Origin: Eledone cirrhosa
Lineage: Eukaryota
Direction: 5' to 3'
Assembly (NCBI GenBank): GCA_964016885.1
Contig: OZ024743.1
Location: forward strand, 307,086,001 to 307,150,000
DNA: 64,000 nt
Under the pieces are notes generated by a model. It saw nothing but the letters and a program-made list of their open reading frames with translations, did not search any database and was not told the origin of the DNA. Shown piece after piece: positions 6,294-56,623 of this stretch. Numbering within the stretch: the stretch's first letter is position 1; each line of letters begins with the position of its first letter. A program made the position numbers and the translations under genes.

Positions 6294-6366
<73 letters not shown>

Positions 6367-6745: not shown

Positions 6746-7397
<652 letters not shown>

Positions 7398-7536
7398 ATA
7401 TATATCATAAAGAAACGGGACCCGACGGAGTTGGGTCCGACTATTTATAATATAACTATACTCTACTACCTCAAGTATTGAGTACTCTGTTGAGTAATGG
7501 TCTAAATAGTTTCAAACTGGTTCTATTTTGATTTAC

Positions 7537-7644
<108 letters not shown>

Positions 7645-13000: not shown

Positions 13001-14014
13001 GGTGTACAGGGCATGTGTGCTCTCTTGTCTTCTTTATGCCTGCGAGACCTGGGTCACATATCGACACCACCTTAAGCAATTGGAGCGTTTCCATCAGATG
13101 TGTCTCAGACGGATCCATGGCGTTCACTGGAGGGACCACATCAGTGATGTCGAGATTTTGGAAAGTTCTATGTGTGACAGTATAGAAGCTCTTGTGCTTA
13201 AGCAACGACTCCGTTGGAGTGGTCACCTTGCCAGGATGAAGGATTCTAGAATACCAAAACAACTCTTTTATGGAGAGTTGGTTAAAGGAAAACGACCGCC
13301 ACATAAACTTTCTCTGAAAGACGCTAACATCTCTGCTGATACATGGGAGAATATTGCTGCTGATCGTAATAAATGGAGAAAGACTGTATATGAGGGAAAA
13401 GTTGCCTTTGAGGCATCTCGAATCGCATACGAGAAAGTAAAGCGGGATGTGAGGAAGGGCATTGCTGTTGCACTTCCAGACGGCGAGGGTCCTCCTATGG
13501 TGCTGACATGCAGCGTATGTGCGAGACTCTGCCTAAGCAAAGCTGGACTCGAAAGTCATCTTCGCAGTCATAAAGTAAGACGAGTGGTTGACTACCAGGC
13601 TGCTGTTGGAGATGCTACTCATCATGCTTGCCAAACATGTGGTAGAGAATGTAAATCAGCAGGAGGGCTCAAGCGACATGCAAAAGTACACGAACTCCAA
13701 CCACAGCCGACTATTCCCAGTGAATGTTTTGGTTGCCGACTCTGTGCAAGACATTTTAGATCATTGGCTGGGCTAAAAAGCCACATTCGATCGCAGCGCT
13801 GTTAGTTGCTATCGTGTGTGTGTGTGTGTGTGTGTGTAGATATGCTTATGTGTGTGCGTGTGTGTGTATATATATATGTATATGTATATTATTATTGTTG
13901 TTGTCGTTATTATTATTATTGTTGTTATTATTATTATTATTATTATTATTGTTATTAATGTATGTGTGTGTGTATATGTGTGTGTGAGTGTGTGTGTGTG
14001 TGTGTATGTGTATG

Positions 14015-14045
<31 letters not shown>

Positions 14046-14152: not shown

Positions 14153-14157
14153 GTGAT

Positions 14158-17100
14158 CAGGTCGCTCTCGAGCGCTACTGGTAACATGTAACCCAGTACA
14201 ACCTATTGCATGGTCGGGTCTTCGGTGACTAAACCGACAACCCCACTAGGATTGCTTGGTTAGGAGGGTGATATTTGAACACCCCGCGGGATGAAAAGCA
14301 GAGTCTACAGCCATGGGATTGGCTATAAAAATAACTCTTACTAACAAAATTGAGCATTCCTAGGGTATCAACGAAAGAATAATGAGTCTACGTGTTCCAT
14401 TGACTGGTAATCGTTTTATGACAATCATTTCTGCATACGCACCGACATTAACCTGTAGTCAAGAATTGATTTTAGGTTTCTACCAGGATCTTAGAGTTAT
14501 ACTTTCCTCCAAACCTAGAGATGATCCTTTTGTTTGGTGATTTAATGCTCGTGTAGGTCGTGATCATAATATCTGGGGAGCAATACGACCATAATAATAA
14601 TGGATTACATCTTTTTCAACTTTGTACAAAATTTGTATTCGTGATTTGCAACACATTTTTTCCAACAAAAAGAAATTCATGAAGTCACATGACACATCTT
14701 AGATCAAAACACGGCCATATATTAGATTACATCATCACTAGAAAATAAGTTTTTCAAGATATTTGCTCAGTAAACATAATGCGTAGAACAAAGTGTGTGA
14801 CAGATCATTCCCTTTTAAGAGGTAAATTAAAGCTACAAATAAAGCAAAATTAAGATTGGTTGGGATTAAGGTTCCTAAACCTATTGACATATCAAAATTG
14901 GACAGTGTTGAGGTTGGTGAAAACTTAGTTCGTGCCTGAAATGGAGTTTGATGAAACGTGGGAGAGGTTTAAGAGTATATAGTATACTCAGTTGGAGGTA
15001 ACACGTTAGGATTCAAGAAAAAGAAACAGGAATTTGTTCTACGAAAAATAAAAAAAAATTGGCATCCTTCTGCAACAAAAGCAAGAACTGTGTTTCAAAA
15101 TGTTTAAAACGAGCCAGGCAGAGTTACCAGCAGCCAAAGCAATTGAAAGCAACATTACAACAGAAGAATGAACAATAAGTGGTGGGCTTCAGAAACTCAA
15201 AGTGCATATGATAGGAAAAATTCAAGGGCACTCTACAACCTCATTAATCAAGTTTTGTGGCCTAATTCCTCAAACGTGGTTCCTGTATTGTAGAGGGATG
15301 GTGGTATTTTGTACAAAGATGCTGATGGTATTATGAAGCGATGGCAGGAACATTTCACTGATTTGTTTAATAACCCATCAGAAAAGGATTTAGAGGTAAT
15401 TAACAGTCTCGACCAGGCAGAAATAATTGCAGAGATGATGTAATTGCCTTCACTGACTGAAGTAGAATTGGCAATTGTAGGAATAAATAGGAGTAAGGTT
15501 CCTGGTCTACATGGGATTCCAATTGAGATTTTAAGATATGTAGGAGGCGTTATTACTTCTCAGGCTTTCTCTTTGATATTACGAATTTGGGAGGGTGGCT
15601 ATATACTCCAAGATTGGATAGATGCAATTATAATATCCTTGTACAAGGGCAAAGAATCTACAGCAATATACGACTATCGTGGTATCAGTGTGACTGAAGC
15701 CACAAGTAAGGTTCTTGTCAAGTTATTGCTTAACAGATTGTTGACTTGCATCTGTTGCTCGGTTCTACCAGAGTGTCAGTGTGGGTTCAGATCGGGTCGC
15801 AGCATTATGGTCATGATAGTCACTGCACGCCAATTGCAGAAGTGCTTTGAACATAGGGTTCCACTGCATCAGCTCTTTATAGATCTTACCAAGGCTTTTG
15901 ATACTGTGAATCGAGATTCTTTGTGGATAATTCTCGGGAAACTTAGTTGTCCCCAGTCTTCGTGGATTTGTTTAGGTGGTTTCACAAGGACACAAAAGGA
16001 AGAGTTAATCTCTGAGTCGATCAAAATTGAAAATGGTGTGAAACAGAAGAACATACCATCACCAACACTAGTCTCCATCTATTTTGCAGCCTGTTTGAGC
16101 TATGCATTTAAGGAGTTCAATGTGGGGTTTACTTGGGATTTCGGACATCTGGCAAACTTTTTAACTTGCGCCGCTTTCACGCTAAATCAAAAGCTTTTCA
16201 AGACATTATCCTTGAGTTGTATGCAAATGATGCTGATCTTGTTGCACATAATGAAGAAGACATGCAGCTCATAATGGATTATTTTTCTAGGGCTTGTCAT
16301 GTTTTTGGACTTACTATCAGCCACACAAAAACTGAATTAATGTTCACTCCGCCTCCAGGCGAGACTCATATTGAGCTAAACATAAATTAATGGTACCCGG
16401 CTGAATGTATTAGATAGGTTCACATATCTTGGAAGCATTATCAGGAAGGATAGATCATTTGATGCGGAAATCAATTAGAGAATTCAAAATGCCACTTCAG
16501 CATCTGGAAAACTAAAGAAAAGGGTAAGGACAGATCGGAGCCTTCATCTAGTTACTAAAATACGTGTGTACAGAGCATGCATGCTACCTGTATTACTGTA
16601 TGGATCTGAGGTATGGACAACCTATAGGCGGCACATAAAATGGTTAGAAAGGTTTCATGGAAACTGCCTTTAGGAATTAAGTGGATATCTTTGACACCAG
16701 ATACAGAAATATTGAGGAGTGCTGGATATATTGAAAGGTTGATTGTTTACAGCCAGATGCGTTGGACTGGTCATGGTATCAGGATGGACGATACCAGGTT
16801 GCCCAAGAGAGCTTTTACATAAAAGGAGGCCAAATCATAAAACAAAGAAACGATTCAAAGATGTGGTTATGGATAATTTGAAGATTCTCGATATATGTAT
16901 TAGAAATCGGAAATCCTTAGCAAAGAACAGAATGGGTTGACGTAGCATGATTAAAGATGGTTGCGAGAAGTTTGAGATAAAACGCATCAAACATGCAGAG
17001 CTCAAAAGATCCTTATGAAAGGGAGTAAACAGAAATTCAGGAAGATTTCAATCCAAAATTTAGATGTAATATGTGTGAAAGAGTACTGCTTTCTAGAGTT

Positions 17101-17420
17101 GGTCTCGTTAATCACCCAAAATGGCGTGTGGTTGGCGAGACACAGGCCGACTATGATGATCTTTTGTTGCAGAGGCCAGTTAATTATATTTGTCATGACT
17201 GTAGAAAAATCTGTTGTTCTCAAAGTGGTCTGACCAGCCACTGTAATCGACATGATCAGGGCTGAAATATTCGTTTTAAGTGTAGTATCTGTGAGAAAAC
17301 ATGCAGCTCTGGGACAGGTCTTAAGAGCCACGTACGTGCCCACAATCGGGTACTTATTGACGACGTTTGAAGATATGGCAATATTCTGAAACGAATCAGC
17401 AATCATCACGTATGTACATA
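14158..17420 (+). pseudogene. Degenerate RTE LINE of the same group, APE N-terminus deleted
   Basis: Frameshifted pieces DYRGISV, FIDLTKAFDTV, NGVKQ, YANDADLVAH, QMRWTGH, CHDC..H zinc fingers; shared 5' motif and decayed ATGT tail. Confidence 0.85.
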
Positions 17421-17687
17421 TGTATGTATGGATGCATAAATGTATATATGGATGTATGTACGTGTGTATGTCTGTATGTGTGTATGTATGCATGTCTGTA
17501 TGTATGCTTGTATGTATGTTTATATGTTTATATGTTTATATATGTTTATATGTATATATGTTTATAAGAACAACTTCCTAAATAACCTAAATTCCACCAT
17601 AAAAAAAAACTTTAATAAAAGTAGGAATATCTTAGTACTACCTGATAAAACTAAAAACATATATAGCCTAGATTATGATACATATAG

Positions 17688-17880
17688 GGCGGTGGATTGG
17701 CAGTATCGGTAGAGGGTCAGGCGCCATGGTTTGCAGCAAAGAGTTACGGCCCTTTATGGTCTGAGTTCAAATTCCGCCGAGGTTAACTTTGTCTTTCATC
17801 CTTACGGGGGTCGATAAAATAAAGTACCAGTAATACACTGGGATAATTGCTGGCCTTGTGCCAAAAGTAGAAACAATTAT
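17688..17880 (+). mobile_element. tRNA-derived SINE inserted in a PLE-like coding remnant (about 17560-18035)
   Basis: Full SINE consensus; flanks read PDKTKNIYSLDYDTY and continue after the SINE with LYKELYRNYKK, similar to 26372-26593. Confidence 0.8.
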
Positions 17881-18049
17881 GATATATATAGAGAATTTAT
17901 ATATAAAGAACTTTATAGGAACTACAAAAAAACATCTCATAAAAAGCTGGATGACATAAATATTGAAGCCCGTAGTTTAATATGTAATTTAGGACTAGAG
18001 AGGTATACTCAACCTTACACCACTAATCCCCCAACTTACTAGTAGTGTA

Positions 18050-18942
18050 TACGAAAACGTATGTGTATATGTGCATGTGTGTTCATGTCTGTGTATATGT
18101 TTGTGTGCGTATTGTTGAGTGAATTTGTGCGTCTGTATGTGTGGAGGGTGTACATTTATGTGTGTGTGTGCGAATGTGTTTGAATCCGTGTTTATGTGGA
18201 TGTGTGTGTGTGTGGAGGGATGAACATTTACATGTATGTGTGATTCTTTTGGGATCTAAGTTTAAGTGAATGTGTGTGTGTATGTGAGTCTGTGTGTATG
18301 TGAGTCTGTGTGTGTCTGTGTGTATGTGCGTTTATGTATGTGTGTATATGTGTGCGTATGTTTGTGTGTATGTATGTGTGTGTATGTGAATGTGTGTGTG
18401 TGTATGTGTAGATGCATGTGTGTATGTATGTGAATGTATGTGCATGCATGTGTGTATGTGTATGTACATGTGAAAGTGTGTATGTATGTATGTATTTATA
18501 TACGTGTGTGTGTGTGTATGTATATGTGTGTGTATATGTATGTACCATATGGAACATAGTGACACACCTTTCAAAATCCCTTGAATTGTTGTTACACCCC
18601 CCTCCCTAACGCTGACCCCCCCCCTCCCCCGCCCTGCCTCCACTCACGCACACACACATACACAAACACATATACATGCACACGCACACACTCATAATAA
18701 TGTACAGACAGAAACACACACAAACACATACACATACACACACACATTCATAATCTAGACACACAAACACACGCATACATGCACACAAACTGTGTCTGAA
18801 AGTGTTTGAGGGTGGGATTAGTGAGTAACTATATATGTGTGTGCGTTTATTTATATATGTATATGTGTGTATATATATACATGTGTGTGTATATATATAT
18901 GTATACGTATATATATGTATATATATATATATACATATATAC

Positions 18943-18973
<31 letters not shown>

Positions 18974-19137
18974 CATATATATATGTATATATATGTACAT
19001 ATATATATGTATATATATGTACATATATATATGTATATATATGTACATATATATATGTATATATATGTACATATATATATGTATATATATGTATATGTAT
19101 ATATGTATATATATATGTGTATATATATATATATATA

Positions 19138-19178
<41 letters not shown>

Positions 19179-19308
19179 ATTATAGATTTATACATATATA
19201 CATATATACATATATACATACACACACACAACACACACACATATATATATATATACATATATACATATATATATATATATACATATACACATACATATAT
19301 ATATATAC

Positions 19309-19341
<33 letters not shown>

Positions 19342-20327
19342 GTAGGTGGGAGTGTGAGAAGCCACCAACAATATTTAATTTTCTATTGTTGTCAATTATT
19401 ATTATTTTTTATTGTCCAAATTTGTTTCCTAATTAAACTTTTGTCTTCGGTCTCGCTGCTTATGGTGGTGGTGGTGGTGGTGGTGGTGGTGGTGGTGGTG
19501 GTGGTGGTGGTGGTGGTGGTGGTATTGGTGGTGGTGGTGGTGGTGGTGATGGTGGTGGTATTGGTGGTGTGGCGGCGGTTGTGGTGGTGGTGGTGGTGGT
19601 GGTTGTGGTGGTGGTGGTAGCGGTAGTGGCGGTGGCGATGGTGGTGGTAGCGGTGGTGGTGGTGGCGATGGTGGTGGTGGCAGTGTTGGTGGCAGTGGTG
19701 GTGGTAGCGGTGGTGGTGGTAGCGGTGGTGGTGGTGGCAGTGGTGGTGGTAGCGGTGGTGGTGGTGGTGGCAGTGGTGGTGGCAGTGGTGGTGGTAGCGG
19801 TGGTGGTGGTGGCGATGGTGGTGGTGGCAGTGGTGGTGGTGGCGATGGTGGTGGTGGCAGTGGTGGTGGTAGCGGTGGTGGTGGTGGCAGTGGTGGTGGT
19901 AGCGGTGGTGGTGGTGGTGGTGGTGGCAGTGGTGGTGGCAGTGGTGGTGGTAGCGGTGGTGGTGGTGGCGATGGTGGTGGTGGCAGTGGTGGTGGAGTTG
20001 TTCCAAGCAGTACTTAATCAAGTTTGCTATTCCCCAACCATAAAAGAGAGATTGTTGTTGAAGTTGAAATTAATTTGAAAAAAAGACTAAAAGTGGTGAC
20101 AGAATGGACTCTATAAACGATGTATTGAACTCTAGTGAACACTGAATATTGGGTATTGAATATTGTGGGATGTTTAGTGGGGCTTGAGGTACGGGGATGG
20201 GGAGGGGATGTAATAGATAATGAAGATGATATAGGAGAGAGATGAAGTCTGGGAGATGGGGGAGCGAGAGGGGCGAGAAGAAAAAAAAGGGCGGGAGAGA
20301 TTATAGAAGATAGAAAGACTAAGAGAG

Positions 20328-20391
<64 letters not shown>

Positions 20392-20479
20392 CGAGTGGGA
20401 GGCAGAGAGAGACAGACAGAGACAGAGACTGATAGAATAGATAGAGAGAGATTGATAGATTGATAGATAGAGAGAGAGT

Positions 20480-20534
<55 letters not shown>

Positions 20535-20808
20535 ATAAAGCGAGAGAGAGACAGATACAAAAAGGGAGGGAGGGGAGAGATGAAAAAGATGGGAGGGTGG
20601 GGATGAGAGGAGAAAAAAGAGAAAGAGAGGATAAAGAATAGAGAAAGACGAGAGAATGGAGGGATGGGGTGGCAGACTATAACAATGGAACAGTAAAATG
20701 ACTAAATAATTGTAAGAGCAGACGACAATGTTTAGTTTTATGAATGAAGGTATTGGAGAGAGGCAGGGGGATAGGGGTGTGTGAGAGAGAGAGTGAGTGA
20801 GAGTGTGT

Positions 20809-20863
<55 letters not shown>

Positions 20864-20909
20864 TGAAAGAGAGAGAGAGAGAGAGAGGGGTGAGTGAGTG
20901 TGTGTGTGT

Positions 20910-20949
<40 letters not shown>

Positions 20950-21009
20950 GAAAAAGAGCGGGGGGAGAGGGAGAGAGAAAGGTGGAGAGAAAAGAAGAGA
21001 AAGAGAGAA

Positions 21010-21073
<64 letters not shown>

Positions 21074-21700
21074 TGTGTATGTGTGAGGGAAAGAGTGAGA
21101 GGGAGAGGGAACAATAGATAGAGAGAGGAGGGTTAGTGTGTGTGAGAGAGGGAGAAAGAGTGAGAGAGAGGAGAGAGAGAGCGAGTTAAATAGATAGATA
21201 GAGGGAGAGAGCGAGAGAGAGAAGACAAAATACACAGTTACCATTGGTTGACCATTCTGTTGTAGGAGAGAGAGGGGGAGAGAGAAGTGGAGAGAGATAA
21301 ATAGATAGATGAATAGAGATAGAGTATGAGAGAGAGAGGGGTGTAAAGGAAGAGAGCGAGAGAGAAATAGATAGATAGAGAGAGGGGAAAAGTGTGAGTG
21401 TGAGAGGGAGAAGAGTGACAGAGTGGAGAGAGAGGAAAATAGAGAGAGGGAGATAAATAGATAGACAGAGAGAGGGGGAAAGTGTGTGTGTGAGAGGGAG
21501 AAGAGTGACAGAGTGGAGAGAGAGGAAAATAGAGAGAGGGAGATAAATAGATAGACAGAGAGAGGGGTAAAGTGTGAGTGTGAGAGGGAGAAGAGTGACA
21601 GAGTGGGGAGAGAAGAAAATAGAGAGAGGGAGATAAATAGATAGAGAGAGAAAAAGAGAGAGAGGAGACAAAATACCATTGGTTGACCGTTCTGTTATAT
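18050..21700. repeat. Compound microsatellite block: (TG)/(CA), (TA), (GGT)n at 19462-19995, (GA)/(GATA) and about 90-bp purine-rich tandem units at 21360-21660
   Basis: Directly visible low-complexity arrays. Confidence 0.95.
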
Positions 21701-22041
21701 TTAAGCTGTAGGACACAAGAAATCTATTGTAGCATACATCCCCCTCACCTCAATCTCCACCAATAATCTTTGTTACTGATTAGGTGGGATCCTCCGTCAG
21801 TTTAGACGAGGAGTACATGTTTGTTGTTTTATTTGAGGTATTGTTTTTCTTTTTGTCAACACAGTGTGTGTGTATGTTTGTGTGAGTGTGTGAGGATGTC
21901 TGTGAGCATGTGTGTGCATGTGTATATAAATATATATATGTGTGTGTGTGTGTGTTCATCTTCTATTGTGCATGTGTAAGTGCCGGCGTTTGATTCGAAA
22001 CTTGGTCTGAATGAAATGCGCTTATAAATGTTATCTATCAA

Positions 22042-22090
<49 letters not shown>

Positions 22091-22199
22091 AAATAAATAT
22101 ATATATATATATATAAGAGAGTATTGAAGTTTGCTTGAAGCATTGTGGAATAATAGGTAAATATCTTTAAGTCGTTTGGAAGCCTCGACAATGCAAATG

Positions 22200-23280
22200 G
22201 GTAAATCTCCGGGTAACAAGATCCGGTGGGGGAGAGAGAGATGTAAGTGGGTGTACGTTGAGATGCGTGGTGTGTATAAGACGTGTAGAGGAATGAAGGA
22301 AAGAGTATAAAGGATAAAATAAAAATAAGAACACGAGAGAGAGTTACCTTGGGAGAGATTTAATTGTCCCTATATATTTCGGATTCACATCCATCAACTG
22401 GGGGTTTTTTCCGGGGTGGGGGAAAGGTTGTCTGTCGGAAAGGTGCGAAACGCGTCCTCCGCTGTTTGTTGTTTTGAATATCTGAGGTATTCAGCAGAGC
22501 GCGCGTGCGCGTGAAATGGGATCGGTCGGGCAGAGGTCAGCGGCCGAATGTGGGAGTGGGGTGACGCTAGCTGTCAGTCCATTCTCTGCTTGTTTGTTAA
22601 ATGTTACTGTGTGTGTGTGTGCGTGTGTTGTTGTCTCGCTTGAGTGTGGTGTGTGTGTGTGCGTGTGTTGTTGCCGTGTTCCTCTGTATTGGCAGTGTAG
22701 TATGTTCGTATGGTGGAATGCTACTGTGTGTATGTGCGTGTGCGTGTGTAGTTGTCTCGTTTGTGTGTGTGCGTGTGTTGCTGCATCGTTTGTTAATTTA
22801 AACCAGCCACCTCATTTCGCTTCTCTCGGATCGATTGTTTATTTGCGGGGCCAGGCGTTTGATAAAAAGCGCTTCCTTGATACGTAACGTGCCGACGTTT
22901 CTTTCAGTCGCTAGAATTGTGACAATGGGCCTTCCGTCTTTGTTTCCGCATTTGTCTATGTGTTTCCGGAAAGACGAGGCCCTGGTTTTAGTGTGTTCCT
23001 TGATCCGGATGTGCAAAAGTCGGATTGTGCTACCTATATAGTATTGGTTGCACCTGTCACATTCTATCTTATACACGACGTATGTGCGTAGGCAACAGTT
23101 CGCATGGCGTATCGGGCAGTCTCTGAGGGAGCACGCGTCAGTTGATTTCCCGGGTTTCCTGGAGAGGCATCTTCGCAGGGAGGGGCCCGAGTGGGCCAGG
23201 TGGATATCGAAGCCCTCCCTCCGTATAGCCTTGCGGATAGCCTTGCGGATAGCGTTGGTGGTAAATTGAGATGAGCAGAA
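22200..23280 (-). mobile_element. Penelope-like element 3' part: GIY-YIG endonuclease and 3' UTR
   Basis: ORF 22798-23298: [47 protein letters not shown]; decayed HHR at 22367-22404. Confidence 0.85.
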
Positions 23281-23389
23281 CAAACAAACATTAAACAATC
23301 ATTTAAATAAATTAAAAAACGTCTACCTGTTCATAATGGTATTTATTATATATATAGAGATTTATATATATATATATATATATATATAA

Positions 23390-26300
23390 ATTAATAAAAA
23401 GAATTATTAATAACAAAGAACAAGTTCCTTATATTAAAAAATTCATCATTTTACGATCGTTTCTAGAATATATATGTGTGTTAGTATGTATATCATATAG
23501 ATCTATGTAAAAATATTACAAACTATCAGAGGAAATATACATACCTTCACATATATATGCTGTCTTCAGAAATAATGATATTTGTTTATTGAAAAAAACC
23601 AACAAAGATTTAATATAATAGGTCTGTTTGGGAACAGGTTTTGAATTGACCAATAGAAAAGTAGTAAGTGGTGAAGTTGATAGAATAGTAGTAGTAGAAA
23701 TTTAATTTAGGGGTAGAGGAATGCAGACTTAAGTTTTGAATGGAAAGAATACTTTGAATTGAAAAGTATACTTTGGGGATGAAAAGAGGTCAAGCCGGTG
23801 AAAGGTACACGAAAATTTGATGTTATTAAAGAATAATGCTAATGTTAAAATCGAAGGAGAATAAAATTTTAGGGTAAAGGTGTTAGTGAGAAATACCAAT
23901 CTTATTTAAAACACAAGGAATTTAGATCTATGACAAGAAATTAAATTGATTGATAGGTATACTTATAGGGATAAATTTATATTAATTCATATGGATGTGA
24001 TAAATAAAAGTTAGATGTTATTAAAGAATGTTGTTAAAAACGAAGGAAAATAAAATGTTGGGATAAATGTATTAGTGAGAGATACCAAACTTATATAGAC
24101 TACAAGGAATTTAGATTCATAACAGGAAATTAAAATAGTTTATATGTATACTTATAGGTATTAATTTTAGGAAAAGAGAGCTGTAAAAGGGAAATAAAAA
24201 TATGAAGTTCTCTGTAGTAAAATACTAATTATAGGTTAACTAAATTAAAAAAACTAATTATAATGTGTAAAATATAAGTGTAAGGTGTATATTAATTAGG
24301 TTTATAATATTTGAAAGTTCTTCTAATTCTATGATTGCAAGATATAATTAATTCTTGTCGCTTATTTAATAGGATATCCTTAGATTTCATTATTTCAAAA
24401 AGTTCCTGGGAACATAATCTACACTCATATCTGTTATTTTGATAAGGGGTGGCCCTTTTGAGCACACTCCAGGTCAGGTTGTAATCGATATTCTTTTTTC
24501 TATAATTATTAATTGTTTCAGCCAAGGATGTTGTATTAGCTAATGCGGCATTTTTAAAACTATGTTTGTGGGTATTAAATCTTACTTTAAATTGGTTAGA
24601 AGTAGCTCCTATATATGAATAAGTTGAGTCCTAATTGCTAATTTTACATTTATATACTGTTATTAATAAGACAATTTCCCTTTAATGGGCAATTTCTTTT
24701 GTTTCTACAGTTACAACCATTCGTGAATATTATATCAGGGGAGTTAGTCAAATTTGGTGTGGAATTTACTCGACTTGTTATATGTGAAGGAGATGGTGGT
24801 TTGTTGCGGTTTATTTTAGTATTATGGTTGGTTTCATGTGTTGGTGGTATATTCGTGTTTTCTTTTACATTTATATGCATTGCACGCACTTATATTTTGT
24901 TGTATATTTTTGGTAGTGGAGTAGAAAAATTTGACAGTTGATCTATTTAAAATTTGATAGTATTTATGGTTTGGCGGGAAGTTTTTCTCTAGGATAGTAA
25001 AAAAAAATTGTAGGGATATTATCTTTAATTTGTAGATTAAATGGAGCATTATACCAAGTATCTCGTCTATTACGGTTTCGATGTTGTTTTTTATATTTAT
25101 ACGATGTATCAGGATGTTTACTAAGAGAGTTACTATTAGTGAATTTATTATATATATGTTTAGTTAGATTAACTGATTTAGGTGTTTTAGTCTGATTATT
25201 AGGAATTTGGTTAGTAATGTTATTAACGTATATTGGAGTATTAGGATTAATGGGTTTTTGAAAGTTATATTTTATGTGAGAAGAGGTAGAGAAATTAAGT
25301 TTTAAGTTGGTATTTTTGGGTGTAGTGTGAGTGGCTTTTAGGTGTGTGTTTTTCATTTGGTGTTTGTTGGTAATATGTGCAAGGTATATAGACTAATTTG
25401 TTTTTGTGGCCGCTTCTAGCTAAAGCTTCGTTATAAAAGGGCGCATTTTTATCGAATACATCCTGGTTAGATGAAAGGTTAGAAATTCTGAGTGAGATAT
25501 TATATGCTAGGTTTTTAAGGATAGATCTAGGGTGATTGGATTGTGAGTGTATGTTATGTAAGTTTTGGTTAGGTTTATGGTAAGGTTGGTAGATACCCGT
25601 AGATAAGTCTAAAGTTATATCTAGGAAATTAACTACTTTAATGGTGTTTTCAAATGTAATAGTGAGACTATAATAGTCTTTGGGGAAAGTTCTAAGTTTT
25701 TTATTTTTTTCAATTTCTGATAGGCTAAGGTTAGTGGAAAGAAGAAGACAGTCATCACGATATAAATCACCTTTAAGGTGGGGAAAAGAAGCATTTATGT
25801 TAAGTATAAGAAGGGGCCCACAAGATCGGTAATTTGGGCAGAATCATTAGAGCCCATAGTAATGTCGAATAGATTACTATATGTATTTCTGGTCCAGTAT
25901 TCCTTCTGAAATTCCAGTAGTGTTTGTCTAGCGTGCGTGATAATAATAATTATCAGCCATAATTAAGTTTGATCTATTTTTGGCAAATATCAAGGCTTTG
26001 TTCAGGAGTATGGGTGATATAGAGGGATAATAAGCATCTATATCAAATTGTAGAAATGAAGCAGATGATTTATTTCTAATATTAGTAAACCAGTTAATTA
26101 CTTGGGATGTGTTTTCCCAGAGTGGTAAATTAACGTGTTTTCTTAATTGTGGGATGACTCTGTCTAAAAAAATTTTACTAATGATGCCAATGTCAGATTT
26201 GGAAGGGCATATAAGTCTTATAGAAGGATTAGAGTTAAAGTTAGATTTGTGATCTTTCAGATTAAAGTGTGGTTTTTTCAGTGCCAAAGGTTCAGTTCTG

Positions 26301-26600
26301 TCTTCAATATTGAGTTTACTTACTATGTTGTGTATTTTGTTGTTGATATTGGTAAGTGCCGCATTATTTGTTTATTTATAATTTTTCCTGAGTTCTTTAT
26401 AAATGAACTCATTGTAATTATCAATATCCATGTTGTATAGATTTCCAGTTTTGTTAGAGTGGACGTGGACTTTGTTAGATTTTTTTAGATCCAATAGGGT
26501 ACAGTCAAGATCCTTTTGAAAATTAGATTTATATTTCTTAAATTTGAGGTGTTTGATTAAGTTAAAAAGGTCTTTCTCGAAGTTTTCAAGCAAGGAGTTG
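23390..26600 (-). mobile_element. Degenerate Penelope-like element (RT, linker, GIY-YIG, 3' pLTR)
   Basis: RT pieces RLICPSKSDIG, FLQFDIDAYYPSI, ITMGS, LYRDDCL (about 25750); WYNAPFN; CNCRNKRNCPLKGNCL; YIGATSN; CRLCSQE..LLNKRQE..CNH. Confidence 0.88.
23444..23577 (-). ncRNA. Type I hammerhead with long stem II
   Basis: CAUUAUUU-CUGAAGA-about 100 nt-GAAA-CGAUCG-UA-AAAUGAUG; 8-bp stem I. Confidence 0.65.
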
Positions 26601-26626
26601 TGTGGTGGGATCTTATATGTAGTGAA

Positions 26627-26668
<42 letters not shown>

Positions 26669-26752
26669 AAAAGTTATGAAACGAAAGGAGCTGTGTGGTT
26701 ACTAAAAACAAGGTTTAGGATGGTGGTTAGGACGGAACAGGAGAGAGGAAGA

Positions 26753-26846
26753 AAGGAGTTTCCTTCGTCAGCTGTAAATGTATCCCGAACCGATGTTTCG
26801 GCGCTGAATTACAGGATATCGGTGTAGTTCGGGTGCGCCCGAGGCC
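26753..26846 (-). ncRNA. Non-circularly permuted hammerhead, copy B
   Basis: GCGC-a-CCCGAA-cuaca-CCGAUAUC^CUGUAA-uuca-GCGC-C-GAAACAUCGG-UUCGGG-auacau-UUACAG-CUGACGA-AGG; one A.C mismatch in stem III. Confidence 0.7.
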
Positions 26847-27017
26847 TTTTATTAATCAAAAGGCCAGTTAGAAAAGGAGAGAGAAAAAGAGAGACCAAAG
26901 GAGAGAGAACGGGAAAGAGAGGGAAAGGCGGAAAAGCAGGGAGAAAAGATGAGGAGAGAGGAAGAGGGGGGAAAATAGGAAAGGAATGGAAGAAAAAATG
27001 TGTACAGATCCCATCGT

Positions 27018-27092
<75 letters not shown>

Positions 27093-27101
<9 letters not shown>

Positions 27102-27560
27102 AAGTTAAATAAAAAGTCAAATGTTTAAAATTTAGCTTCGTTTATTACTGCTATATATATTTCGGTGACAGCCATCTTTGGCTGTGACCTCTTCAGGCAG
27201 TCCGAATTAGTGTGGTATAGACAAGTACATATGTTGTTGAGGTGTATAATTTTGTCAATACTCTGATATGCCCAGTTCCTGGTTGGGTTGTTATTTCACT
27301 GAGGAACTGGAATCATGATTTCACTGAGGAACTGGAATCATGATTCCAGTTCCTCAGTGAAATAACAACCCAACCAGGAACTGGGCATATCAGAGTATTG
27401 ACAAAATTATACACCTCAACAACATATGTACTTGTCTATACCACACTAATTCGGACTGCCTGAAGAGGTCACAGCCAAAGATGGCTGTCACCGAAATATA
27501 TATATCAGTAATAAACGAAGCTAAATTTTAAACATTTGACTTTTTATTTAACTTTATTTT
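27093..27560. repeat. Near-perfect palindrome (centre 27340/27341) of a PLE pLTR with an HHR in each arm
   Basis: Arms are reverse complements; HHR ACUGC-CUGAAGA-GGUcACAGCC..GGCUGUcACC-GAAA-UAUAUA-UA-GCAGU at 27147-27201(-) and 27455-27509(+). Confidence 0.85.
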
Positions 27561-27652
27561 ACATTACTCCGGAGTAACCAGACCAACCTGCGCACTTCGT
27601 CGAGTGCTCCAGCCTCCATACTCAGGTGTTGGTATACAACCAACATATACTC

Positions 27653-27951: not shown

Positions 27952-28953
27952 CACGTGGGAAAGTAAAAAATCGGAGAATAGACCGTTAAAACATGTTTAT
28001 TTAAAACAGCACCTACGTACGTTTCGCCCAGTTGGGCTTCTCAAGGGCATAAATAATCAAAAGTGTTCCTTATATTGCTCGGAAAGAGTTTTGGGGGTTA
28101 AATCCACATCAAGGTTCATTGCTCGCAAAAATATCTTGTTTTGATTTTGCAGCAGGTCAAGGGAGGTAACTCTGGCCGGTGTTAGGGCAGTCTTTCCCGG
28201 ACAAATTTTTTTTTTGTTTTTGCCGCATCTGTTTGTCTGAGGCTGGGTCTGGTATGCAAGGATTGTTTCCTGGGTGTTATTTTGCATCGCCTGCCCGCCG
28301 GGGTGTTAAGACTTGTTGCAGGGAGATCCGGTGTACGGTTTCACTCCTCATCCTTAACCCATCTGAAGAAGGATATTTTTAAGCGATGTGTACAACTTAT
28401 CGCTGTTTCAGCTCTGCTGTTGATGAGCTCGTGGGGTGCAGTTATGATGTGGTAGAGCTCCATGAGGCAAAGATCGCATTTCCTCTTGAAGTTGTACGGT
28501 GCAGCCTGCCGACAATCTCCCAGTGCGACAATCTCCTTCTTCAGATGGGTTAAGGATGAGGAGTGAAACCGTACACCGGATCTCCCTGCAACAAGTCTTA
28601 ACACCCCGGCGGGCAGGCGATGCAAAATAACACCCAGGAAACAATCCTTGCATACCAGACCCAGCCTCAGACAAACAGATGCGGCAAATAAAAAAAAAAA
28701 TTTGTCCGGGAAAGACTGCCCTAGCACCGGCCAGAGTTACCTCCCTTAACCTGCTGCAAAATAAAAACAAGATATTTTTGCGAGCAATGAACCTTGATGT
28801 GGATTTAACCCCAAAAACTTTTTCCGAGCAATATAAGGAACACTTTTGATTATTTATGCCCTTGAGAAGCCCAACTGGGCGAAACGTACGTAGGTGCTGT
28901 TTTAAATAAACATGTTTTAACGGTCTATTCTCCGATTTTTTACTTTCCCACGT
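27952..28953. mobile_element. PLE 3' fragment with inverted duplication
   Basis: 27952-28371 inverted at 28535-28953; spacer encodes GIY-YIG C-terminus CDLCLMELYHII..LINSRAE..CTHR on the minus strand; UUGAGAA-type HHRs at 28012-28046(-) and 28858-28896(+). Confidence 0.8.
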
Positions 28954-29065: not shown

Positions 29066-30167
29066 ACCAAAAACATAAAACAAAATATAAGTGCCTATAA
29101 TGCATATAAATATAAAAAAAACCATGAGTATACCACCAGTACATCAAACTAACCATAATATCTCCTCAGGTACAGGATTCACGAAAAGTTGTAACTGTAG
29201 AAACAAGGCAAACTGTCCATTAAAAGGAAATTGCCTTGTTAATAACATAGTATATAAATGTAAAGTTAACACTAAGGACTCAATTTATTCATATATAGGA
29301 GCTACCTCTAACAATTTTAAGGTAAGATTTAATACCCACAAACATAGTTTTAAAAATGCCGCACTAGCTAATACAACATCTCTAGCTGAAATAATTAATA
29401 GTTATAGAAAGAGGAATATAGAATATGACCTGACCTGGAGTGTGCTCAAAAGGGCCACCCCTTATCAAAATAGTAGAAATGAATGTAGATTATGTTCCCA
29501 AGAACTTTTCGAAATAATGAAATCTAAGGATATCCTATTAAATAAGCGACAGGAATTAATAATATCGTGTAATCATAAACTGAGAAAAACATATAAATAT
29601 TATAAACCTAATTAATATACACTTTAGAAATTAATATATAAATTATTTTTAATTTAGTTAACCTGTAATTAATATTCTACTACTGATGAACTACATAATT
29701 CTGCTTTAAATATTATAAACCTAATTAATATACACTTTAGAAATTAATATATAAACTATTTTTAATTTAGTTAACCTATAATTAATATTCTACTACTGAT
29801 GAACTACATAATTTAATTTTGCTTTCCTTCTTACAAATATCATTTCCTAAAACTGATACCATTAAGTAAACATATATAATGCTTTAACTTCAGGTTATGA
29901 CTCTATGTTCCTTGAAAACTATATATATTTACTATTTCTCACTAATAAATTTAATCCCCCCCCCCAATAATTATATGTATATATAAGTGTGTATGTGTGT
30001 GTATATATATGTGTATGTATGTGTGCATGTATGTGTGTATATATATATGTATATATGTATGTATATATGTGTGTATATATATATATATATATGTGCATAT
30101 ATATATATATATATGTGTGTATGTGTGTGTATGTGTATATATATGTATATATATATATATAAGTGTA

Positions 30168-30250: not shown

Positions 30251-31146
30251 ATGTGTATATATGTGTATATATATATGTATATATATATATATAAGTATAT
30301 ATATAGATATATATATATATTATTTTCATATTCTTTTAATTTCCCCTTATCTTTAACAGCACTTTTCAACTGCATCTAACTCTTATTTATCATATCTATA
30401 TGTATTAGTATAATTTTATCAATATAAATATGCCCATCAATTAAATTAATTTTATATTCTTTTCATAGATATATTTTTTTCACTAACATTCTTATCTTAA
30501 AACTTTGGTCACCTTAGATATTTGTATTGGCATTACTATTTTATAACAGCAACTGCTTGTATACCTTTTACTCACCACCTGACCTATTTTCACCCCTAAA
30601 ATAAGCTTCAATTACTACTATTTTACCATTTGGCCAATTATTAACTTTCTATTGGTTAATTCTAAACCTCTTACCAAACAGACAGAATATATTAGATCTT
30701 TGTTGGTTTTATTCAATGAACAAATAAAATTATTTCTGAGGTCAGCATAAGACCTATTTCTTCCCTAAAATAATCCTTCATTCATAATATTCTTTTCCAT
30801 CCAAAACTGAAATCTACCTTCCTCTACCCATAATTTAAGGTTCTTCTAATACTATATTACTATCTTGACCCTCACTATCTCCTGATTGGTCAATTCAAAA
30901 CCTGTTCCCAAACAGACCTATTGTATTGAATCTTTGTTATTTTCAATAAACAAATATCATTATTTCTGAAGACAGCATATATATGTGTAGGTATGTATAT
31001 TCCCTCTGATAGTTTTGTATAAATATTGTACATAGATCTATAGAATATGCATACCAACTCTAACACATATATATCCTAGAAACGATCGTAAAATGATGAA
31101 TTTTTTTTAATATAAGGAACTGTTTCTTTGTTTATTCATTATTTTA

Positions 31147-31797: not shown

Positions 31798-31917
31798 CTC
31801 CAAGAATACCCTGCATGAGAATTCTCACGAACTCGCTACCCACAATACAGAGTACTCACAACCTCTAACTGGATTACCTAAAACGAAAACTTGTTAAAAA
31901 TTAGAAATTAGAAGTTA

Positions 31918-31999
31918 GGATTATCCATCATCAGTTGTCTATTAGGCGTCATAGCCATTTCTTCGCGTTAAAGACAAGATACCTCAGCCTAGGGTGAAA
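31918..31999 (-). ncRNA. Non-circularly permuted hammerhead, copy C
   Basis: UCAC-cc-UAGGC-ug-AGGUAUC^UUGUCU-uuaac-GCGA-A-GAAAUGGCU-augac-GCCUA-au-AGACAA-CUGAUGA-U; stem I UUGUCU/AGACAA. Confidence 0.65.
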
Positions 32000-33257
32000 C
32001 AATAACTAAAGTAAGTTATTGGGATAAAAAGAAGTGGGTGGAGAAAGAGAAGGACATGTAAACAGACATGATGGGTGAAACAACGTAAAGAGAGGATAAA
32101 AGGAAAAAATCAAGTCAATAATTCATTTCGAGCATAAGAACGGGCGAATTTTGACGAGGAGATTTTGAATATTGAAAGTTTTTAGTTAGTTACAGTAATG
32201 GATTGTAAATTGGTCTTATTGTATTCTTATTCATGGATTAGAGTTGTTCTACAGCGAGATTTTCTAACGGTTTAATTTCCGGAAGTGAATATGAGATCCA
32301 AAATTAAGGGGCGCTAATGTGTAAGGGGAGGTAACTAGCTCATTAAATTAAACTATTTAAATTCTTTGCTCTAATAGACATTATATAGTGTCACAATTGA
32401 ATCCCTTTCACATAATGTTATATATTTATATTTAATTTTAAATACAGTCTATTCTCCCATAATATATTAAAGGTTTCATTAGATTGTTATCTATCCATTA
32501 CTAGACAAGATATAAGTTATGGAACAATGTATAGGTGTTTACATGTCCAATTAGTTAAATCCCTTATGTTAATAATTTAATCCTTTATATACAATTTATA
32601 TATTTAATTATAAATGTATATATAATTCATTATCACATATTACATTTAATGTCTCTACATATTATATATCCATTACTGTATATATTATAAGTAATCTAAA
32701 GTAATTATAATTGTTTCTACTTTAGGCACAATGCCAGCAATTACCCAGTGCATTACTGGTACTTTATTTTATCGACCCCGTAAGGATGAAAGGTAAAGTC
32801 AACCTCGGCGGGATTTGAACTCAGATCGTAAAGGGACGTAACTAAAGTAATTATAATAAAAGGTGGTGACTATATGTTTATTTCGAATAGTTATTGTAGA
32901 GTATAAGGTTTGAAATAAATAGGAGTTGTGTAGAGGAAAGAGCAGATCAAAGAGTGTGATGCTGTGGGGGAAGAAAAGTCCTAGAGGTGAAGTGTTAATG
33001 GTGGTGAGGAATTCAAATCTGACATTGATATATACTAGCGGCTAGGTTTAAAGCTATGGAATGAGTGTCGGTAGTGGTGCTGGCATGAGGAAAACACCTC
33101 TGATTTTTTATTTAGGAGGTCTAGTTTCGAAAAGATTATAGTACGGGTCTCTAGAAGACAGAGGTTACATAATTTATTCGGTGGTTTATACCTACTATTT
33201 CCCATTGAAGTGTGTATGGTCTATTCCTAGTTTTCAGAGAGTGTATGTAGCGAGATA

Positions 33258-34343
33258 TGTTTCTTTTATTTGCCACCAGGGCATCAAAAGTGGGACAAGT
33301 ACAATGGGGGGAGTTTACAAAACAAGGCGTCCTCAATAAGGAGGAGGCAATAACAATATATAAAAATAAAATAAAATATAACAAAAAATAAAATTTATAA
33401 CAAAGTCCTCAATAGAGAGGAGGCGCCTTGGGGGGTCGCACACACCCCCGAAAAAAGTGTGCAACCCTTCCCCTCAGGAGCACAGAGAAGGGGTGCTCTC
33501 TTGGTCTTTCATCTTCCTCACCTATAGTCTGATGTAGAGTGAAGGCCCATTCACACGGGCCATTCTCGCCACTTTCACCCATCCTTCATTGAAACGGCTG
33601 GGGTGCAGCACCTCTCTCCCATCCTGATCCTTCTTCCGAAATGATATCGGAAGAAACGGACCAGTTGTTGGCCAGAGAGAAAGGTGTCTGACCTCAGTCC
33701 TTTCAGACGCGTCCACCATACAACTTCTTTCGCCATGGCTATTACGCACAGAAACACCGCCTCTCCTTCGTTTTTGAAGAGGGGAGGCGGCTTGATCGTT
33801 ACAATAGACTCGGTGGTCAACCGGATCGGTCCCACCCTTGACACCAGTTGTTCGACATAGCCCCACAGATCGGCAATGCCCGAGCAGTGTACCAATGCGT
33901 GTGCAACGGTTTCCTCGTCGCACACGCATCTGGGACAGATCTTTTTCGATGGGTCCCTACCCGGGCGCCGGTGTCTGTAGAACCTTTCTCGAACGGGCAG
34001 AGCTCTTCTGTAGCATTGCCAGGCCAGGGACCTCTGGAAGTTATCCATGGGTCCCGGGCTGAATGTCCTACCGAACAGGTTGGCCAGTTCGTCTTCCTCC
34101 ATGCCTAGGGCTTCTCCGAGGGCGTCGTCGCACCTGCTAACCACCAGCCCTCTATAGAATGACGAGGTGGATTCTCCACTGACAGCCGGGTCCGCCTGCC
34201 AGAGAGCCGTGAGCGCCTGGGCACACTCGGTGTGCCAGGCGCCCAGTTTTCTCGGTCTTTGCTTGACCCAGGATTGCAGCTCGGTGAGTGAGACGAGTCT
34301 GGGAAAGGCTCGCCCCACAAACGGGGCCCACACCGGTTGACCG
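33258..34343 (-). mobile_element. 5'-truncated Tx1/L1-like LINE with 17-bp TSD
   Basis: TSD GTGTATGTAGCGAGATA at 33241-33257 and 34344-34360; ORF 33575-34333 with CPRC..EETVAHALVHC zinc knuckle; 3' AATAAA. Confidence 0.85.
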
Positions 34344-34629
34344 GTGTATGTAGCGAGATAATTAAGTGGGGTTGGCTAGATTGTGTTTTTTAAAAGAATG
34401 GGGATGCGAGTTGTATCTCGTCTTGAAGCAGTTCGAAGTAGAGCCAATATAAGTTTTAGAAGAGTTGTTTGTGTTGACCGCACAAGAGTAAATGATGTCT
34501 TTGATTAAGCAATTATTACCTAAGGGGCAAGTTCTATTTGATCTACAGTTATATTTATTCTGGATGTTAGCTTGTTAAATTGATATATATTTATATATAT
34601 ATATATATATCAATTTATATATATCAATT

Positions 34630-43298: not shown

Positions 43299-43453
43299 AT
43301 GTATATATGTTCTTGTGTATCTGTTTACATTTTGTGTTTGTTTATAACACTTAACTGCGTCAAACAAATTATTTTATCGATCTCTGTGTCTCTAACAGCT
43401 AAGTTAAGTGTTATAAACAAACAGAAAATGTAAACAGATACACAAGAACGTAT

Positions 43454-43557
<104 letters not shown>

Positions 43558-44574
43558 ATGTATATATGTTCATGTGTATCTGTTTACATTTTGTGTTTGT
43601 TTATAACACTTAACTTAGCTGTTAGAGACACAGAGATCGATAAAATAATTTTCAGACTTAAAAGATGATTTGATATTATTGATTAAATTCCTTCGAAACG
43701 GTGCACAATCTTGGCCACAATAAAAAGAGTGAAGCGAGTAAAAGAAAAAAGAAACAGTTATATTGGCTAGGGTTATCGTAGACACTCCTAAAACGATGGG
43801 ATGGTCACGGCTGGAGTGCCTCTGACAATATTTCTTCTGAATATGTGTTGACCTTGGCCTACAGTAACAATAACAACAAAGACAACAGCCAGGAGTAAAT
43901 TCAGATGAAAAACGGGAAAGTAAGAGGTTTAAATATAAAAGGAGTTATTTGAACACTTTGATGTATAAACTGGCAACCATTTTAGGTATGCAAATATTGG
44001 AACAACATCAAAAACTACATTATAGTATATTGCGTCAAACAAACGAGGAAAAGTAGACATGGTTACATCACCTGCTAGAAATAGAAGCCTCTCCTTCCTC
44101 ACTTCCATTTTACGTTAATAAGAGAATTACGCCCGGCTCTCAGGAAAAACGATACACTACGAGGGTCGACTAAAAAATTCATAAGCTGATCAATCTTCTC
44201 TCATGGAAAGTTCAAATGAGGTGTTTTTTACAACGTAGTCCCTGGAACAAAAAACAATAGTGGTGGTGGTGGTGGTGGTGGTGGTGGTGGTAGTGGTAGT
44301 GCTGATAATGATGATGGGTCAACGATAAAGAAAGTTGTCCAATTTTAATATCCTATTTACTATAGCATCATTTCCCATATTCTGTACCTCTGTGGGTGAA
44401 CACCCGCGACCCGTTCTTTTGTAGAGCAGCTCTACCGAGAAATATATATATAGATACATACATACATAAAAATACACACATACACCTACATATACATATA
44501 CATCTATATGCATGTTCATATATATACATACATGTGTATATATATGGTATGGTCCCGTAACTCATGATAGAGTA

Positions 44575-48211: not shown

Positions 48212-48766
<555 letters not shown>

Positions 48767-50209: not shown

Positions 50210-50252
50210 ATGGAGCTGCGGCGCTGCAAATGGGTTACATATGAAAAAGTTT

Positions 50253-50326
50253 GTCCTCATCAGTGGCCTTCCAACCATCGTAGGCATTTCGTCGCATTAA
50301 AGGCCATATACCTCAGGTTGGTGCGA
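50253..50326 (-). ncRNA. Non-circularly permuted hammerhead, copy D1
   Basis: UCGCA-CCAACC-ug-AGGUAUA^UGGCCUU-uaa-UGCGA-C-GAAAUGCCU-acgau-GGUUGG-AAGGCCA-CUGAUGA-G; all helices pair fully. Confidence 0.8.
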
Positions 50327-50874
50327 GCAACGGCTAAAAAAAGTCGTTGGGACACGTAAATAAAGGGGACGCTAGGGTAAACAGACAAACTGGTTTAAGC
50401 AGCAGAAAGTGATGAAGAAGAAACAAGTCCCAGATTTCTATGAATATAAATTCGGTGGAATCGTGAACGAGAGAATAAAGACCATCAAACCTGGTTGAAA
50501 TGTGAGCAAGGAAGGAATTTCGCACAGGTCTAACGGGAGGAAGAAGGGGTCTGGTCTGCGAATTCGGTAAACATAAGTTCTGTGAAGCCGCCGACGAGAA
50601 AGAGAGAAAAAAAATTCATACCGGCTTGGCCAAGTGTCCGCGAGAAAAGGATTACGGACAGGTCAAACGGGAAGAAAGGGGAGGAGGAGAGGTAGTGACA
50701 GAGAGTGAGTGAGTGAAAGGTGAGGAAGAGGCTAACAGAGAGAGAGAGAGACTGCTAGAAAGGGTAAAGATCAAAGAACGAAACAGACTGGTGGCAGCGG
50801 AGGAAAAAATATATGTGTAAATATGATAATAATGGAGCTGCGGCGCTGCAAATGGGTTACATATGAAAAAGTTT

Positions 50875-50948
50875 GTCCTCATCAGTGGCCTTCCAACCGT
50901 CGTAGGCATTTCGTCGCATTAAAGGCCATATACCTCAGGTTGGTGCGA
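50875..50948 (-). ncRNA. Non-circularly permuted hammerhead, copy D2
   Basis: Same as D1 with one linker substitution. Confidence 0.8.
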
Positions 50949-51235
50949 GCAACGGCTAAAAAAAGTCGTTGGGACACGTAAATAAAGGGGACGCTAGGGT
51001 AAACAGACAAAATGGTTTAAGCAGCAGAAAGTGATGAAGAAGAAACCTCTCTCTCTCGTCTGCGACTTCACAGAACTTATATTTACCGAATTCGCAGACC
51101 AGACCCCTTCTTCCTCCCGTTAGACCTGTGCGAAATTCCTTCCTTGCTCACATTTCAACCAGGTTTGATGGTCTTTATTCTCTCGTTCACGATTCCACCG
51201 AATTTATATTCATAGAAATCTGGGACTTGTTCTTT

Positions 51236-56217: not shown

Positions 56218-56520
<303 letters not shown>

Positions 56521-56551
56521 ATGTGCACATCGCTATTTCAGAGCACCAATC

Positions 56552-56623
<72 letters not shown>

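Follow-up and report, generated by a model that had tools for sequence, protein, structure and literature searches.

A decayed hammerhead motif of non-circularly permuted order beside a Hydra-type endonuclease in Eledone cirrhosa

The closest described relatives of the motif reported here come from Eckert et al. (2023, PMC10085705), who named the SGC order of hammerhead blocks and, in the text available, reported it from metatranscriptomes only. Both SGC and CSG RNAs cleave in vitro, at 0.004-0.19 per min. The authors assumed that CUGAnGA is inseparable from the adjoining strand of stem II, and their descriptors demand CUGAUGAG or CUGAUGAUG followed by at least two further stem II pairs (PMC10085705). 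The hammerheads described from the pseudo-LTRs of Penelope-like elements (PLEs) are of type I (CGS), with circular order, a short palindromic stem III and a dependence on dimers, and those of metazoans cleave poorly in vitro (Cervera and de la Pena 2014, PMC4209133). In one reconstituted active PLE (PAc), hammerhead mutants had no effect on insertion in vitro, no RNA-seq ends fell at the hammerhead cut site, and the hammerhead cleaves with protein only (PMC11167929). Every Hydra family with a listed ribozyme has type I (PMC8557442 File S2). Naiad elements were reported without canonical hammerheads, eight of them being flagged as a 'half core' ('HHR_half_core', including Naiad_Ovul and Naiad-3_Nbra), and from this absence came the suggestion that hammerheads may be no more than parasites of PLEs (PMC8557442). 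The literature covered, with bioRxiv supplements and most subscription papers outside its scope, gave no description of a permuted hammerhead, whether from PLEs or from the genomes of animals; the accessible part of 10.64898/2026.07.22.740005 deals with type I only, and that of PMC13725137 describes no permuted hammerhead in either setting.

We analysed a window of 64,000 nt from Eledone cirrhosa (GCA_964016885.1, OZ024743.1:307,086,001-307,150,000, forward strand), in which positions 31921-32027 of the minus strand (copy C) read as a decayed, non-circularly permuted and predicted self-cleaving hammerhead, likely at the 3' end of a Hydra-type PLE and belonging to a family otherwise found at Naiad tails. 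We give this reading a probability of roughly two in three. It rests on the S-G-C order with an intact core, on six helices that change sequence between copies, and on the placement of the motif in the 3' UTR of Naiad ORFs; against it stands the opening of the core between A9 and 10.1, which falls outside the assumptions made by Eckert et al. (PMC10085705).

Order and predicted fold of copy C

Read 5' to 3' on the minus strand, copy C presents the cleavage site, then GAAA (31961-31958) and then CUGAUGA (31934-31928), that is S-G-C, an order unobtainable by rotating hammerhead types I-III. Block S (31972-31983) comprises the 3' strand of stem III, the AUC triplet and the 5' strand of stem I; its cleavage block, UGAGGUAU-C, has U16.1 at 31979 and C17 at 31978, and by analogy with the RNAs of Eckert et al. 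(PMC10085705) the predicted cut lies between 31978 and 31977. The UUAA linker and block G follow at 31954-31971 (stem II 3' strand, GAAA and stem III 5' strand), and block C at 31928-31940 joins the 3' strand of stem I to the CUGAUGA core. Stem I pairs UUGUCU (31977-31972) with AGACAA (31940-31935). All core nucleotides are intact and the three stems are present, the sole core feature lacking being G10.1-C11.1: this pair is U-A in either of two registers, because the leader U at 31998 also pairs with A11.1.

Three further helices, Z, H and X, complete the predicted fold. Stem II is made with a 5' leader strand (31993-31998) whose partner is 31967-31962. Hairpin H (32000-32021, 8 bp) stands between this leader strand and helix Z, whose 5' strand (32022-32027) forms six Watson-Crick pairs with 31926-31921, starting one nucleotide past A9; a shuffled 3' flank equals this helix with P 0.031, and the helix is present in the nested fold too. 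The 5' strand of helix X, followed by UGA, occupies 31984-31991 on the non-bulged side of a K-turn-like loop, the partner side being 31953-31943. Helix X sits between the leader strand of stem II and the 3' strand of stem I, thereby connecting these two stems at their far ends. Taken from the pairing pattern, the architecture would be that of a hammerhead in which a helix carrying both RNA ends, together with a hairpin, takes the place of the A9-10.1 link.

Copy C itself is probably dead as a ribozyme. It has a G.G mismatch in stem III (31955/31982), A.C and C.C mismatches in the leader-formed stem II, and a C.A mismatch at the end of the extension helix (helix X), where the base at 31942 that would give a C-G pair makes up about 99% of the read depth from other copies. 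Four of five pairs remain in stem III and four of six in stem II, and each is the weakest among eight copies (-3.1 against -3.8 to -7.6 kcal/mol for stem III and -4.4 against -10.0 to -16.6 kcal/mol for stem II). In our judgement it is unlikely that this copy still cleaves well.

The initial annotation had proposed a permuted hammerhead here, and the motif is real: every part it named is found in the sequence, including the two stem I strands, the UUAA linker, the extension UAGGC/GCCUA and the upstream hairpin (32021-32000). Its extent, 31918-32024, gives way to 31921-32027 for the full structure, and it had neither recognised the published type SGC in this order nor noticed helix Z, the K-turn-like loop or the formation of stem II with the leader. 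The replacement of a G-C by a U-A pair at 10.1-11.1 is a fair description of copy C against copy B, with the U after A9 opposite A11.1, but it is not the sole register. The decay it suggested is borne out by the weak stems and a broken neighbouring endonuclease, although the mismatches exceed the two it had counted.

Type SGC of PMC10085705 (HRIMA-1 and a variant) has in common with copy C the S-G-C order, a short linker that connects stem I with stem II, an extra helix running into stem I and a full core. In that type, stem II and the extra helix continue 3' of CUGAnGA, whereas here both come from the 5' leader; helices Z and H and the K-turn-like loop are added here, and the copies lie in chromosomal retrotransposons. 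We file copy C as an SGC variant, because its order is SGC but its block C is interrupted, stem II pairing with the 5' leader. Type CSG (CSG-1 and CSG-2, from soil metagenome DNA) has the same closed wiring in rotated form and a UUAA-containing linker; its block C is intact and its ends lie elsewhere, and the accessible parts of PMC10085705 report no host element. Going by their layout, which is that of Naiad consensi from the nematode region of a published set, CSG-1 and CSG-2 (PMC10085705 Supplementary Figure 10) may be nematode Naiad tails. With type I of PLE pseudo-LTRs copy C shares the position at the 3' end and the tolerance of an extra base between A9 and 10.1 (PMC4209133), and in Hydra type I the 10.1/11.1 pair, non-G-C in copy C, is likewise not always G-C, U.U occurring as well (PMC8557442 File S2). 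By contrast, the order is S, G, C rather than C, G, S, and the permuted form is pseudoknotted with a stem III that is extended and non-palindromic. A type I scan of the window gave at least nine other sites, copy C not being among them, and Rfam placed no hammerhead at copy C among the 150 of 192 window matches listed.

Permuted copies in the window and in Naiad elements

A two-helix SGC descriptor (the three blocks, at least five pairs in stem I and at least four in stem III) finds five sites in the window, with cores at 31934, 50263, 50885, 26771 and 4395; 300 local dinucleotide shuffles yield 0.04 sites on average. Besides copy C these are, all on the minus strand, copy B1 (50252-50354), which has the same fold and K-turn-like loop with stronger helices; copy B2 (50874-50976), in tandem with B1 and 97.5% identical to it over 238 nt; copy D (26759-26862), a short non-coding piece flanked by (TA)n runs; and copy A (4379-4460), which matches the descriptor and could be parsed into the fold. 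Copy C aligns with the 50.3-kb copy over about 105 nt, leader included, with a score of 50 against a shuffled maximum of 28, in agreement with the homology first proposed between them. The five window copies and three metagenome loci (L127, L149 and L186) make up the eight parsed copies; the near-duplicate B2 stays outside the counts, which leaves seven distinct copies.

All eight parsed copies retain CUGAnGA, G12-A14 (GAAA), the A15.1-U16.1 pair and H17, while the helix sequences vary freely. Across the seven distinct copies, stem I pairs within its own copy at 41/42 positions, against a fraction of 0.45 when strands are swapped between copies (0/5000 swaps as good), and stem III at 31/35 against 0.72 (17/5000). 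The corresponding values are 37/42 against 0.57 for the leader-formed stem II (5/5000) and 28/28 against 0.45 for helix X (2/5000), own-copy pairing of II, X and Z being inflated because their strands were picked by searching for the best pairing.

The base after A9 is unable to pair with C11.1 in five of the seven copies, and a leader G pairs instead; copy B requires the G after A9 for pairing with 11.1, and in copy C either U works. G10.1-C11.1 is formable in the other six distinct copies. Helix Z abuts hairpin H in 5/7 copies, the best Z of copies A and D lying far from stem II, and its per-copy shuffle P (0.031, 0.11, 0.07, 0.16, 0.002, 0.40 and 0.34) is below 0.05 in two of seven. Stem III runs on into helix X, via the K-turn-like loop in C, B1 and B2 and via bulges elsewhere. 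These three copies match the sequence pattern of the K-turn consensus (a 3-nt bulge with tandem G.A/A.G), and the five other parsed copies lack it. Nested folding z-scores are unremarkable (-1.6 to +0.3), by a method blind to pseudoknots. In B1 and B2 the 3' strand of the hairpin can pair over 11 bases with the 3' strand of helix X; this pairing could be a competing fold, acting as an off-switch of the ribozyme.

About 190 metagenome stretches match a degenerate reverse transcriptase (RT) motif; the 120 retrieved all have Naiad-like RT at the motif. Of these, 51 were testable, since at least some 250 nt follow their RT, and the remaining 69 (less than 850 nt after the motif) were dropped. Three of the 51, namely L127, L149 and L186, carry the fold in sense orientation in the 3' UTR; type I and the antisense fold scored zero in the same 51 loci, and shuffles gave 0.05 per set. 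The Naiad ORF of L186 is nearly complete: a GIY-YIG domain at the N-terminus, bearing CX2-5CxxC and CCHH, is followed by CxC, DKA and a C-terminal RT, and the ribozyme core of this locus lies about 180 nt past the stop codon. In L127 only DKA and the C-terminal RT are visible, and L149 is cut at its 5' side and has a long C-terminal extension. All three loci draw only 0-1 stem II pairs from the strand directly after CUGAnGA. The other 48 have no hammerhead in the sequence available; truncation affects some of them, yet the UTRs of several are long, so that many Naiads do lack a hammerhead and the fold is patchy among them. Rfam assigned no ribozyme family in 20 Naiad-like loci that included the three. 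In an RT tree (40 rows, C-terminal 200 aa), the three loci fall in one 15-row group (90/90, not starred) together with ribozyme-less loci; because L186 is a long branch, we draw no history from it.

In L149 (140-1765 in RT orientation) the Naiad-like RT ORF extends by about 340 aa before the permuted ribozyme begins. Judged from its Cys and His boxes, this extension may be a ubiquitin-specific cysteine protease domain. A loose scan of all 120 loci gave two antisense matches, L122 and L224, which apparently are one element; L122 lacks the hairpin. A motif scan of 120 of about 350 viral-contig stretches gave one that passes the loose two-helix test; since it has neither the hairpin nor strong helices, these stretches served as a negative control. 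The two control matches to the loose descriptor are without hairpin H, and the RT motif had no match in viral contigs.

We then turned to the 54 Naiad consensi of PMC8557442 File S5, read by eye around CUGAnGA, a procedure that misses cores split by line breaks. At least 15 of the 54 have a permuted fold in this reading, nine of them SGC and six CSG. Clear leader-type SGC folds are seen in Naiad_Amil, Aacu, Anas, Obim and Ovul and in four other entries, with II and X, plus Z and H where the flank sufficed; two entries, Bfor and one other, are weaker. The CSG rotation is clear in Naiad-1, -2 and -3_Nbra and three others, in the nematode part of the file. The octopus consensi Naiad_Obim and Naiad_Ovul have the K-turn-like loop and a leader hairpin sequence like those of C and B, and several consensi of the spider and ostracod region have a core after a run of C for which no fold was reached by eye. 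The permuted fold is thus firm in the Naiad clade and, with copy C, probably present in two clades.

The neighbouring endonuclease and the element carrying copy C

Upstream of copy C on the same strand lies a GIY-YIG endonuclease in two parts: an N-terminal part (34361-34574), whose CxCx5C linker is degenerate and which contains one in-frame stop, and a frameshifted C-terminal part (33035-33257) with CxxC...E...N...CxH and a stop codon. They are split by a 1.09-kb 3' fragment of an L1/Tx1-like LINE (33258-34343, minus strand; zf-RVT, E 7.8e-05), flanked by a 17-bp target duplication at 33241-33257 and 34344-34360. The GIY-YIG remnant had been placed at 33050-34535, which holds for the strand, but only about 430 nt (34574-34361 and 33257-33035) are endonuclease. 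The profile match (PF01541, E 0.0036) is under Pfam's cut-off; the N-terminal half is 56% identical (E 5e-23) and the C-terminal half 38% identical (E 5e-09) to the endonuclease at 29091-29612. The features of the Hydra clade (PMC8557442) are found here, namely the CxCx5C linker (its first Cys being Tyr), CxxC and CxH around E/N, no CCHH and position at the ORF end, and by eye the protein is like the Hydra-1_Ajap endonuclease. This copy retains no RT, the domain in which the clade has a DKT motif, and homology searches found no relatives of the Hydra-type endonucleases. On the minus strand no CUGAnGA occurs between the endonuclease stop codon and 31934, so the type I hammerhead of a Hydra element is missing from this interval. 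Nowhere in the window is there a remnant of Naiad coding sequence, the best tblastn match having E 0.024.

Between endonuclease and element end lies a probable multi-copy 3' UTR (31900-33034, minus strand), interrupted by a SINE-like high-copy repeat (about 32696-32841, plus strand) that is missing from another copy. Four public runs were aligned to the locus at 80% likeness; aligned records start at 31899-31902, and the element seems to end near 31900. One contig (X3-10, 871 nt) runs from 32216-32695 directly into 32842-33213, and so represents another copy, SINE-free, which reaches from the C-terminus of the endonuclease to a point 190 nt short of the ribozyme. Mean depth in one run (X1) is 2,500-8,300 in UTR and endonuclease bins off the inserts and 13,000-25,000 in the two ribozyme bins, compared with 13.8 million in the SINE and 0.2-0.4 million in the LINE, about 100-fold over the LINE flanks. 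Outside the inserts, depth is at a similar level from endonuclease to ribozyme, with no hole at 32163-32215, and a subfamily at a depth of 270-300 in another run (X3) is visible at 31942/32132 and at 32312, on both sides of this interval. Three records reach up to 32162 and include the ribozyme wholly or for the most part. We consider it likely that the GIY-YIG endonuclease and the copy C ribozyme belong to the same element.

The most serious alternative leaves the fold and its function unchanged and concerns its carrier: copy C would be the tail, truncated on its 5' side (about 32162-31900), of an unseen family, Naiad or non-autonomous, that landed in a Hydra 3' UTR, with the GIY-YIG sequence a chance neighbour and the ribozyme confined to Naiads. 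Four records stop at 32158-32162 with 51-247 leftover unaligned letters, and none of the records listed bridges the roughly 54 nt of 32163-32215, although this stretch is covered. The published Hydra families with a listed ribozyme are all type I (PMC8557442), as are the ends of the two other Hydra elements of the window (24.3 and 29.6 kb); by eye, C and B are like the two octopus Naiads in leader and hairpin; and the window is dense with nested inserts. On the other hand, the even depth and the X3 subfamily on either side of the gap argue for continuity, no minus-strand CUGAnGA offers the Hydra element another ribozyme between stop codon and copy C, other Hydra UTRs of the window match this one in length (the 24.3-kb element has about 0.7 kb up to its core), and a Naiad coding sequence is missing from the window. 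We regard a truncated tail as an unlikely, if serious, contender.

A Hydra-type element with a permuted ribozyme at its 3' end thus remains our preferred reading, and the placement at a PLE 3' end, as initially annotated, holds; the SINE-free copy and the similar depth make it probable that the GIY-YIG neighbour is part of the same element. The accompanying idea that one PLE lineage uses the permuted ribozyme in place of type I does not hold: the fold is common in Naiads, a distantly related clade whose 3' UTRs share the ribozyme family of copy C (PMC8557442 consensi), whereas the coding neighbour of copy C is Hydra-type, and type I closes the window's other Hydra elements. The fold thus extends beyond a single lineage. 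Outside the ribozyme, the copy C UTR matches none of the other UTRs compared, similarity between UTRs being confined to the ribozymes. A short motif common to copy C and the 28-kb Hydra UTRs was dropped, as it did not rise above shuffles.

Predicted mechanism, significance and other hammerheads

In the structure that we infer, stem III would lead through the K-turn-like or bulged loop into helix X and on to stem I, stem II would be made with the 5' leader, and helix Z and hairpin H would fill the A9-10.1 link. Whereas minimal type I forms depend on dimers, intact family members would be expected to work as monomers, because their stem III is non-palindromic and extended. Folding would have to wait for transcription of the tail, because CUGAUGA comes last. 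By analogy with SGC, the cut would fall after C17 (H17), about 80 nt before the element end, and cutting at successive pseudo-LTRs could release unit-length RNA from tandem read-through transcripts. Helices Z, II, X and III would keep the two products together, which might favour re-ligation, giving circles as proposed in PMC4209133. As for its history, the ribozyme-bearing tail may have moved between Naiad and Hydra elements in the lineage of this genome.

Self-cleavage could also have been lost from the family, leaving a hammerhead-derived RNA that binds protein or initiates reverse transcription at the 3' end. The PAc hammerhead is dispensable in vitro and needs protein to cleave (PMC11167929), metazoan PLE hammerheads are poor cleavers (PMC4209133), the A9-10.1 link is opened, and many Naiads are without the core. 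We nevertheless hold this to be quite improbable, since CUGAnGA, GAAA, A15.1-U16.1 and H17 are kept in every parsed copy and would be needless for a purely structural role. That ordinary hammerheads arise when these strands pair across two tandem copies, or with some other RNA, making the single-copy pseudoknot an artefact, is least credible of all: B1 and B2 are in tandem, type I PLE hammerheads act as dimers (PMC4209133) and nested z-scores are unremarkable, but tandems of circular order yield S-C-G and never S-G-C, the strands are non-palindromic and each pairs within its own copy, and lone SGC and CSG RNAs cleave in vitro (PMC10085705).

Returning to a self-cleaving permuted family, the wider proposition, which we favour only by a narrow measure, is that animal retrotransposons carry an active S-G-C hammerhead with its core opened at A9/10.1 and a leader-formed stem II, some with a K-turn, outside the scheme of six orders. 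This would be the missing Naiad ribozyme, with CSG as its nematode rotation, and it would have been swapped onto Hydra elements, so that PLE ribozymes would be exchangeable 3' modules and non-circular permutations abundant in animal genomes. If true, this corrects the published statements that genomes of known organisms lack non-circularly permuted hammerheads (PMC10085705) and that Naiads are without hammerheads (PMC8557442); it would also account for the 'half-core' cases that the authors of PMC8557442 could not fold, and explain why the descriptors of both groups missed these ribozymes. A natural hammerhead opened inside its core would be a direct test of the limits to rewiring a three-way junction. 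Both wirings on related elements in one genome would offer a test of the role of the ribozyme in Penelope-like retrotransposition, and would allow monomer and dimer cleavage, circularisation and the origin of non-circular permutation to be compared.

The 64-kb window holds at least nine type I hammerheads besides the five permuted ones, Rfam giving one type I (63436-63480) among the window matches listed. In the type I ends of two Hydra-type elements, 23450-23580 (minus strand) and 30955-31100 (plus strand), the stem II region measures about 100 nt, which greatly exceeds that of the Hydra families listed in PMC8557442 File S2. Cores at 3130 (plus) and 1305 (minus) belong to identical inverted copies with the order GAAA, cleavage site, CUGAUGA; these are type II-like, with stems I and III capped, an uncommon arrangement among animal repeats. 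Positions 24292-26698 (minus) hold a Hydra-type PLE whose RT and endonuclease frames are broken, and permuted copy D precedes it across a (TA)n run. Positions 27953-28953 are an inverted duplication of a Hydra-type 3' end, with a hammerhead-like site whose first core block is altered. An intact-looking LINE ORF of 1212 aa lies at 10167-13805 (plus), in which endonuclease, RT and C-terminal zinc fingers are seen by eye. Long near-perfect palindromes at 27092-27564, 43366-43651, 48215-48608 and 56262-56622 are probably inverted pseudo-LTR junctions or assembly fold-backs.
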